Shown: positions 7,093 through 7,699 of the stretch, in pieces | Position numbering within the stretch: position 1 is the first letter of the stretch | Layout of the letters: the number at the start of each line of letters is the position of its first letter | Origin: a virus | DNA length: 64,000 nucleotides | Virus genome (UHGV): UHGV-0027388 | Direction: 5' to 3' (one strand) | The notes under the pieces: model-generated | The model's database searches: none | Told to the model about the DNA's origin: nothing | What the model saw: the letters and a program-made list of their open reading frames with translations, nothing else | Made by a program: the position numbers and the translations under genes

Positions 7093-7512
7093 TCAAATAT
7101 AGTCCTCAAAATATTGGAGCGTGCTATATTCGCAAATCAACTTATTGCGCGGAACATCAATCCGAGACTTTGCCTTTTTGTATGTCCTGATATATTGCTC
7201 CATTTTTTGCGCTACGAGATGTTCTTTCCCTCTCAAAGCGTCAAACTCGTTCTGCCTGATATGTGGCTGCACATCGGAAATATAGGAGTTCTTGCGGAGC
7301 AAAACGGCCTTTGTGAAATCAACACCACACCCAGAATCTTGATCTGTCCATAACACATATTTGTGCTTGATGTGCGACCTCAAAGGAACAGCAAATAAAT
7401 TCCCCTTAATTCGCACGCAAAGCATAATGTATGGTCTATCTGCTTTCTGCTCAATTTCCGGGCAATCAAGGTGATCTCGGAAGAATGTATCGGTAAGAAA
7501 GATAAAATGCAA
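7093..7512 (-). CDS. ToxN/AbiQ-family type III toxin (endoribonuclease), TTG start
   Basis: N-terminal HFIFLTDTFFRDHL...ADRPYIMLCVRIKGNLFAVPLRSHIKHK matches the ToxN/AbiQ pattern; preceded by repeats plus a terminator. Confidence 0.6.
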   Translation of the reverse strand: MHFIFLTDTFFRDHLDCPEIEQKADRPYIMLCVRIKGNLFAVPLRSHIKHKYVLWTDQDSGCGVDFTKAVLLRKNSYISDVQPHIRQNEFDALRGKEHLVAQKMEQYIRTYKKAKSRIDVPRNKLICEYSTLQYFEDYI

Positions 7513-7516
7513 AAGA

Positions 7517-7548
7517 AATACCCCCTCATAAATGAGGGGGCGGTCTTC
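7517..7548 (-). terminator. rho-independent terminator between the RNA repeats and the toxin gene; its 3' arm contains the toxin RBS
   Basis: CCCCCTC-ATTTAT-GAGGGGG hairpin followed by TATTTCTTT immediately before the TTG start. Confidence 0.65.
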
Positions 7549-7553
7549 TGGTT

Positions 7554-7655
7554 GAGCTTTCTTTATATTTAGTTCGACGCGCTCTACGTCGAAATCAACT
7601 CAGTGAGCTTTCTTTTTTCCGCGACAATCGCGCTCTACGATTGCATCTTCAAGGT
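7554..7655 (-). ncRNA. candidate type III antitoxin RNA (ToxI-like): two tandem 51-nt pseudo-repeats
   Basis: each unit shares the boxes GAGCTTTCTTT and GCGCTCTACG (plus strand), with an A-rich stretch in the RNA sense; located between a promoter and the terminator upstream of toxN. Confidence 0.5.
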
Positions 7656-7671
7656 TTCCCTTGCACCCTCA

Positions 7672-7699
7672 ATTATATTCAATTTTTCATCTAAGTCAA
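7672..7699 (-). promoter_or_regulatory. promoter TTGACT-16 nt-TATAAT driving the repeat RNA and toxin gene
   Basis: reverse complement of 7694-7699 is TTGACT and of 7672-7677 is TATAAT. Confidence 0.5.

Follow-up and report, generated by a model that had tools for sequence, protein, structure and literature searches.

The closest described relatives of the locus reported here are the TenpIN systems, whose prototype comes from Photorhabdus luminescens TT01. The family was defined by Blower et al. in 2012 with antitoxin repeats of 50.9 nt on average (39–57 nt), present in 2.2 copies (1.9–3.0), and with TenpN toxins that average 164 aa (PMC3401426). The TenpN of P. luminescens, the only member for which toxicity and neutralisation have been demonstrated, was found to be toxic, to be neutralised by its own repeats and to abort coliphage infection (PMC3401426). 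Five of the 25 original tenpIN loci were plasmid-borne, and the listed loci include those of Yersinia p153kb and of Granulicella (Acidobacterium sp. MP5ACTX9) pACIX905 (PMC3401426). More recently, Nadig et al. (2025) expanded TenpIN to 722 sequences, more than half of them from Firmicutes and some of them located on contigs of Caudoviricetes and of prophages from human microbiomes, with E. coli pYLMB22 as a TenpN example (PMC12283969). In that work, TenpI is described as longer, non-identical repeats that are missed by Tandem Repeats Finder (TRF) and that have a conserved A-stretch and a two-stem pseudoknot (PMC12283969).

The locus lies at 7093–7699, on the minus strand of a viral genome stretch of 64 kb that was analysed as a whole and that we call the window. 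Judging from its sequence, it reads as a complete TenpIN-family type III toxin–antitoxin (TA) module located in the lysogeny end of a prophage, and we think that this module is very probably functional. It matches the published description of TenpIN in every respect and is an ordinary new member of an already described family, being neither a variant of ToxN/AbiQ nor a new subfamily.

An earlier sequence-only reading had placed a type III TA locus beside the prophage integrase, and all the elements that it described for 7093–7699 were found on the minus strand when the sequence was inspected again. The order promoter, repeats, terminator and toxin that supported the type III class is confirmed, as are its parts: the TTGACT-16-TATAAT promoter (7699–7672, 11/12 match), the two tandem A-rich 51-nt repeats with common boxes (7648–7547), the terminator with the toxin ribosome-binding site (RBS) in its 3' arm (hairpin at 7541–7520 plus a T-run) and the integrase at 6012–7082, which follows 10 nt after the toxin gene. 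The features are given below in the order of transcription; R1 is a covariance model that was built from the matches to Rfam RF02925 upstream of toxin homologues.

7672–7699, minus strand: sigma-70-type promoter, TTGACT (7699–7694), 16-nt spacer, TATAAT (7677–7672), 11/12 match
7598–7648, minus strand: TenpI unit 1 (distal), 51 nt; RF02925 42.6 bits, model R1 57.6 bits
7643–7638 with 7630–7625, minus strand: stem 1 of unit 1, 6 bp
7635–7632 (GAGC) with 7608–7605 (GCUC), minus strand: pseudoknot of unit 1, 4 bp
7618–7609, minus strand: A-rich linker of unit 1
7547–7597, minus strand: TenpI unit 2 (proximal), 51 nt; RF02925 56.7 bits, model R1 67.4 bits
7592–7587 with 7579–7574, minus strand: stem 1 of unit 2, 6 bp
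7584–7581 (GAGC) with 7557–7554 (GCUC), minus strand: pseudoknot of unit 2, 4 bp
7543–7546, minus strand: AGAC, the opening bases of a further unit, restoring the conserved unit boundary (..AGA/AGA..)
7511–7541, minus strand: intrinsic terminator, 9-bp G+C-rich hairpin at 7541–7520, then a T-run
7093–7512, minus strand: tenpN, predicted 139-aa endoribonuclease toxin of the TenpN family (NCBIfam NF047358), TTG start
6012–7082, minus strand: prophage tyrosine integrase, outside the TA module (Pfam Phage_integrase, Arm-DNA-bind_4, Phage_int_SAM_3)

The toxin gene decides to which family the locus belongs. Its TTG at 7512 is the most upstream possible start of the 139-aa open reading frame (ORF), and the choice is backed by 29 homologues, with which the N-terminus (M-x-F-I-F-L) aligns. 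The product matches the NCBIfam equivalog NF047358 ('type III toxin-antitoxin system TenpIN family toxin') at 139.9 bits (E = 6.3e-41; cutoff 90 bits) and covers positions 1–140 of the 141 in the profile. This is a higher score than those of the members named in the literature, which are 112.4 for Yersinia, 124 for Granulicella and 127.9 for E. coli pYLMB22. A tblastn search against plasmids recovers these same members (Yersinia pseudotuberculosis IP 31758 p153kb, Granulicella pACIX905 and E. coli pYLMB22, CP073975), and hhalign of the profile of the window's clade with the TenpN of Yersinia p153kb gives a probability of 98.7%. The residues R26, P27, Y28, P43, R45, S46, H50, G63, D65 and K68 do not vary among 30 homologues, one of which is the window protein. 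Moreover, they reproduce the TenpN pattern D..R.Y...P.R....H...G.D..K (PMC12283969), with a presumed correspondence to the numbering of the E. faecium reference.

An AlphaFold2 model of the 139-aa protein, made on the homologue alignment, reached a mean pLDDT of 95.9, and its predicted fold is like that of the solved type III toxins, the ToxN/CptN endoribonuclease fold. The PDB contains no structure of TenpN or of a TenpIN complex. In structural alignments the identity of the window protein to ToxN and AbiQ is 12–13%. Thus, if the model is right, the protein would work like ToxN, whose fold it would share, yet it belongs to the TenpN sequence family.

The sequence-only reading had attributed to the protein an N-terminal signature of ToxN/AbiQ, had assigned it to that family, and had proposed a profile search against ToxN/AbiQ models as a check. 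Here it has to be corrected. The Pfam scan of the toxin gave no ToxN/AbiQ match at E ≤ 1, just chance-level ones, and the PADLOC scan, in which there is no model for this toxin, gave no match either; by NF047358 the protein is a TenpN. In a phmmer search against PDB sequences nothing relevant was obtained, and no ToxN or AbiQ chain appeared. What is left of the signature is a weak likeness of the RPY...PL(T/R)S motif to ToxN 4ATO, a marginal match (E = 0.067) in a search of the profile against the PDB. The same search returned a chain of ribosomal protein L4 (6z1p_Ae, E = 1.2e-4 over 43 residues), which we rejected as probably spurious.

The toxin family is large, with 717 clusters at 50% identity among 1.84 billion representatives. 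The metagenome collection has a protein identical to that of the window in 84 of its blocks, with Hadza gut samples among them, and the neighbours of the gene are unchanged there. For the RNA comparisons we used a homologue set of 80 genome loci (mainly from Clostridia, Lachnospiraceae, Oscillospiraceae and Veillonella) and 36 viral loci from IMG/VR. Since tblastn of the toxin against GenBank phage records gave no match, the viral evidence comes from the IMG/VR contigs only. In essentially all of these 116 loci the order is the same: units of the 6A type (RF02925), terminator and then toxin gene.

The antitoxin array of the window consists of two adjoining units (7648–7598 and 7597–7547) and the 4-nt start of a third, which compares well with the repeat norm of TenpIN. 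The boxes GCGCTCTACG and GAGCTTTCTTT, in the RNA sense CGUAGAGCGC and AAAGAAAGCUC, are common to both units. The units are identical at 30 of 51 positions (59%), and the 51-nt array that they form was not reported in a run of Tandem Repeats Finder. Therefore, the significance of the array rests on RNA models and not on repeat identity. Both units match RF02925 over all its positions (1–52 of 52) and pass its gathering score of 41.2 bits, unit 2 with 56.7 bits (E = 7e-11) and unit 1 with 42.6 bits (E = 4e-7). Each unit passes the gathering score independently, and beyond these two the 64-kb window contains no further match to 6A or to R1, so that the double match is far beyond chance. An Rfam scan of the locus gave no match to ToxI at E ≤ 10.

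The same type of unit accompanies the toxin gene elsewhere. At the threshold of Rfam, RF02925 was found directly upstream of the toxin gene and on its strand in 18 of 20 sampled loci. With R1, between one and three tandem units are detected in that position and orientation in essentially all loci for which upstream sequence is available, amounting to 149 matches in the 80 genome loci plus the window and to 72 matches in the 36 viral loci; outside the position upstream of the toxin there were almost no matches in about 720 kb. With filters off, R1 also gives units that are weaker but alike in design upstream of the TenpN genes of Yersinia, Granulicella and E. coli, again with covariation between loop and tail. 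Across loci the units start with (A/U)GAU and finish with ..GAGA, and in most of 79 genome loci AGA(Y) comes after the last unit, ahead of the terminator; in the window this is the AGAC at 7546–7543. Such a conserved boundary fits processing at each junction, and AGAC would be the site at which unit 2 is processed at its 3' end.

A covariance analysis of the repeats, which had also been suggested from the sequence-only reading, supports for each unit a hairpin of 6 bp and a loop–tail pseudoknot of 4 bp. In the alignment of homologues 99.0% of 1209 cells are paired, and compensatory changes on both sides occur in 10 of 10 pairs, whereas sliding the 3' partners as a control leaves 26–43% paired. 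The pseudoknot appears as GAAC/GUUC, GGGC/GCCC or GAGU/ACUC in different loci. Within the window itself, stem 1 has changed on both sides in four of its six pairs between unit 1 and unit 2 with pairing retained. Each TenpI unit can thus, by these covariation data, be expected to fold as an H-type pseudoknot bridged by an A-rich strand. In the 65 loci in which two units adjoin, pairing in both helices is retained in at least 98.9% of cells for either unit; therefore, both are under selection for structure. In these loci the distal unit is the shorter (median 46 nt) and the proximal one the longer (median 52 nt), and the pseudoknot sequence is unlike between them in 35 of the 65.

The expression signals are those of a type III operon. 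The promoter at 7699–7672, which by its sequence appears to be strong and of constitutive type, is the sole promoter-like site on the minus strand within 6900–8500 in a promoter scan. A promoter of at least 10/12 located at most 80 nt upstream of the array is present in 44 of 78 homologous loci vs 3 of 78 control windows, so that the promoter of the array seems to be conserved across loci. The terminator hairpin is formed by GCCCCCTCA-TTTA-TGAGGGGGT (7541–7520, 9 bp), and the toxin RBS, GAGGGGG at 7527–7521, is inside its 3' arm, 8 nt before the TTG at 7512. Homologous loci also have a hairpin and T-run between the array and the toxin gene, whereas an RBS within the terminator arm is a feature only of the closest clade of the window within the TenpIN family (loci L001–L004).

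Before its connection with tenpN considered here, RF02925 was the '6A RNA' of Weinberg et al. 2017, a small RNA without an assigned function (PMC5737381). The window units share with it the full-length match, the same hairpin and the conserved A-rich/GCUC tail. The difference is in the printed Rfam structure line, which has the 6-bp hairpin only, while the window homologues add the loop–tail pseudoknot by covariation. Pseudoknots are beyond what a covariance model can represent. In essentially every locus that we examined the motif goes together with tenpN, and it is therefore likely that the orphan Rfam motif 6A is the TenpI antitoxin. This is possibly not an original point; the literature searched has no paper linking 6A/RF02925 to TenpI, but the link may already be suggested in the supplementary part of Weinberg et al. 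2017, outside that search. The 6A design appears to be the TenpI design in general, of which the threshold of Rfam mainly captures a Firmicutes subset.

When compared with the type III systems described so far, the locus shares with TenpIN the toxin family NF047358 and the element order promoter, repeats, terminator and toxin. It also shares units of about 51 nt in about two copies that are non-identical and have an A-stretch and a two-stem pseudoknot, and the occurrence in Firmicutes and in Caudoviricetes prophages. It differs in belonging to a clade of gut Clostridia prophages, with about 30–35% identity to the enterobacterial members, and in the position of tenpN tightly upstream of an integrase; these differences are all within the described range of the family. 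The sequence-only reading had taken the 51-nt unit as a possible mark of a distinct subfamily. This argument fails, because the 2012 definition of TenpIN already gives an average of 50.9 nt for the repeat (PMC3401426), so 51 nt is the norm of TenpI, and the unit already exists as RF02925.

The systems ToxIN and AbiQ-antiQ (Pectobacterium, Bacillus thuringiensis, E. coli, Lactococcus) have in common with the window locus the logic of the operon and a pseudoknot RNA antitoxin processed by its own toxin, a processing that is presumed for the window. However, the window toxin is outside their sequence family, and ToxI units are of 31–46 nt (mostly 34–36), near-identical and in more copies, whereas the window units are of 51 nt and 59% identical. 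CptIN (Eubacterium rectale, PDB 4RMO) resembles the locus in having about two longer repeats, a Firmicutes host range and an A-tract that is proposed to form A-minor contacts with a pseudoknot stem; its toxin, in contrast, is of another sequence family and its repeats are of 40–48 nt and near-identical.

The surroundings of the module are those of a prophage, with genes for a RecT-like protein, portal, tape measure and endolysin (57986–58894) in the window and several HTH genes of Cro/CI type at 7733–11162. The module is flanked by a gene for a 199-aa HTH protein and by the integrase, and this three-gene context recurs in metagenome contigs. The 199-aa protein (7733–8332) was considered as a third component of the module and discarded, as all 116 related loci lack a homologue of it. 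The ATG of the integrase lies 10 nt past the tenpN stop on the same strand, and a scan between both genes predicted no promoter or terminator; tenpN and integrase are therefore likely co-transcribed. In the closest clades a recombinase is also found directly downstream of the toxin gene on the same strand, but of differing kinds, namely tyrosine integrases of three architectures and, in L003, a large serine recombinase. The gap from tenpN to the tyrosine or serine integrase is of 0–15 nt in three unrelated recombinase lineages, and in L002 the recombinase ORF overlaps the end of the toxin gene. Most homologous loci have no recombinase downstream, and the more distant homologues have housekeeping genes alongside. 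A 96-aa ORF at 4203–4493, considered as an integrase fragment, has no Pfam support. A comparison of both prophage ends for att core repeats gave no exact match of at least 13 nt.

From what is known of the type III systems, the module might work as follows. The terminator would stop most transcripts and leave TenpI RNA in excess, while read-through past it would give little toxin mRNA, and translation of the toxin would be limited further by the TTG start and by the RBS buried in the terminator stem. TenpN would cut the TenpI precursor at the conserved unit boundaries (..GA/AGAU..) and would remain bound to the processed pseudoknots as a closed, inactive RNA–protein ring. An infecting phage that stops host transcription or breaks down RNA would prevent the replacement of the labile TenpI, and the freed TenpN would cleave cellular and phage RNA, so that the infection would be aborted. 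A prophage with TenpIN may in this manner protect its lysogen from other phages and possibly penalise the loss of the prophage. A more speculative proposal, which we consider doubtful, is that in this clade the two TenpI units, instead of being redundant copies, are distinct subunits of an obligatorily asymmetric RNA–protein assembly and that the module is transcriptionally coupled to the prophage recombinase. The idea of asymmetry draws on the shorter distal and longer proximal unit, each with its own covarying stem and pseudoknot. If the coupling to the recombinase were true, the antitoxin terminator would also set the integrase levels, and toxin release would be linked to prophage integration or excision.

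Other explanations of the locus can be weighed against this evidence. A system of the ToxIN/AbiQ family, or a new subfamily of it, would account for the weak likeness to 4ATO that the profile gives for the RPY..PL.S motif (E = 0.067) and for the name 'protein AbiQ' that JGI gave to two homologue clusters. We think that this is extremely improbable, given that Pfam ToxN is unmatched at E ≤ 1, that structural alignments give only 12–13% identity to ToxN and AbiQ, and that the TenpIN equivalog is matched full-length and above its cutoff; furthermore, ToxI is absent from the Rfam scan, and repeat length and copy number fit the norm of TenpI and not that of ToxI. Hardly more credible is a decayed, non-functional remnant, which the TTG start codon and the mere 59% identity of the units might suggest, since the family-invariant residues are all retained, compensatory changes preserve both helices in both units, the identical protein extends across 84 collection blocks, and many members of the TenpIN family have a TTG start and non-identical units (homologous loci; PMC12283969). 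The tandem 6A units could also be no antitoxin at all but a cis-acting leader (attenuator or protein-binding) that tunes the expression of an RNase-like protein and the integrase. Their position in the 5' leader, before the terminator and an RBS-sequestering hairpin, would agree with it, and so would the integrase start 10 nt behind the toxin gene and the Rfam entry for 6A as a small RNA without assigned function. This explanation is nevertheless very unlikely: the units are in tandem, with conserved boundaries and a covarying pseudoknot each, the partner protein has a modelled type III toxin fold, a recombinase is absent downstream in most homologous loci, and in the TenpIN family the repeats neutralise the toxin in trans (PMC3401426).

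A functional TenpIN module is thus the reading that we keep, and the remaining question concerns its role. We lean towards anti-phage defence of the lysogen as the main one, provided that the module is functional. The same molecular system may instead have been selected for prophage addiction or stabilisation, by post-segregational killing once the prophage is lost or excised, and not for abortive infection, which we consider possible although less probable. The location of the module at the integrase end of the prophage speaks for addiction, as do the tyrosine or serine recombinases directly downstream in the closest clades and the presence of 5 of the 25 original tenpIN loci on plasmids (PMC3401426), many small plasmids carrying tenpIN. 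On the other hand, the sole functional data for the TenpIN family are of phage resistance (PMC3401426), and distant homologues reside by housekeeping genes without a recombinase. Addiction and abortive infection are not mutually exclusive, and the defence and prophage-stabilisation roles of the module are compatible with each other.

The locus leaves the existing knowledge of type III systems unchanged. It shows that a TenpIN module is present in the lysogeny region of a prophage that is common in the human gut. The toxin gene has neither a Pfam family nor a PADLOC model and would therefore be missed by standard annotation of defence systems. The co-occurrence of 6A with tenpN and the pseudoknot supported by covariation allow, in turn, 6A to be annotated as the TenpI antitoxin. 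Besides, a covariance model can serve to detect those TenpIN loci in which the repeats have diverged too far for tandem-repeat finders. As a minor addition, tenpN is often located just upstream of prophage recombinases.

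Besides the two tandem units of the window, at 7547-7648 (-), units of the Rfam family RF02925, "6A RNA", were found alongside TenpN-family toxin genes in all loci examined, that is, upstream of the toxin gene in the 116 homologous loci compared (L001-L116) and also in loci L119-L123. The units form a pseudoknot between the loop GAGC and the tail GCUC, which is backed by covariation; the Rfam model's printed structure line does not show it. The Rfam entry describes 6A RNA as an sRNA of unknown function, and no link between it and TenpI was found in the literature searched. Because of this co-occurrence with TenpN genes and of the covarying pseudoknot, 6A RNA appears to be the TenpI antitoxin.

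The alignment of TenpI units from the 80 genome loci (L001-L080) permits comparing the unit farther from the toxin gene with the nearer one. The distal unit is systematically shorter, with a median of 46 nt vs 52 nt for the proximal one, and the pseudoknot sequence differs between the two in 35 of 65 loci. Both helices are kept in distal and proximal units alike. We think that one unit may not be able to replace the other.

Downstream of tenpN, a site-specific recombinase gene lies on the same strand, with a gap of 0-170 nt or even with overlapping genes, as follows.

Recombinase genes 3' of tenpN, on the same strand
window, 6012-7093, with the integrase gene at 6012-7082
L001, 3528-4688
L002, 3407-4609
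L003, 2961-4409
L004, 3557-4837
L083, 3513-4691
L116, 3427-4458

These recombinases are of different families: tyrosine integrases of several architectures and, in one case, a large serine recombinase. The gene order suggests that tenpIN-int is a recurrent arrangement at prophage ends, and co-transcription of tenpIN with the recombinase gene is possible.

The toxin, at 7093-7512 (-), has neither a Pfam family nor a PADLOC-DB 2.0 model, and its database copies are mostly unnamed or labelled "hypothetical" or "AbiQ". The TenpIN system of the window would escape standard defence-system pipelines. When the profile of TenpN homologues was compared with PDB chains, ribosomal protein L4 (6z1p_Ae) scored better than ToxN, by a 43-residue match (..vPLR..I.H.YVLW.., E = 1.2e-4) that is probably a chance similarity.

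A 199-aa protein is encoded at 7733-8332 (-), directly 5' of the promoter of the TenpIN module and in the same orientation. Its N-terminal part is an HTH of the Cro/CI type (HTH_31 and RstR-like matches, both weak), and its C-terminal domain is uncharacterised; no homologue was found near the 116 related TenpIN loci.

Just outside the integrase end of the prophage there is a tandem repeat at 4967-5094 (57-nt unit, 2.2 copies, 89% matches, TRF score 210), which is A-rich on the minus strand and is followed by neither an evident terminator nor an ORF that resembles a toxin; a nearby 96-aa ORF, 4203-4493 (-), has no Pfam match. A comparison of the prophage's two ends yielded no att core repeat of at least 13 nt. 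Eight tRNA genes (Gln, Met, Gly, Leu, Ser, Pro, Thr, Thr) are clustered at 703-1898 (-), at a distance of some 4 kb from the integrase end.

In other genomes, further orphan RNA motifs from the 2017 discovery set of 6A are found close to TenpIN loci, no more than 2 kb away.

Orphan RNA motifs near TenpIN loci
L002, 973-1197 and 1501-1740, two copies of FuFi-1
L005, 4044-4123, skipping-rope

Within the structural module of the window's prophage, Rfam RF02990, "gut-2 RNA", matches at 31303-31350 (+) with 42.1 bits against a gathering score of 39.8, just 5' of the ORF at 31325-31951.
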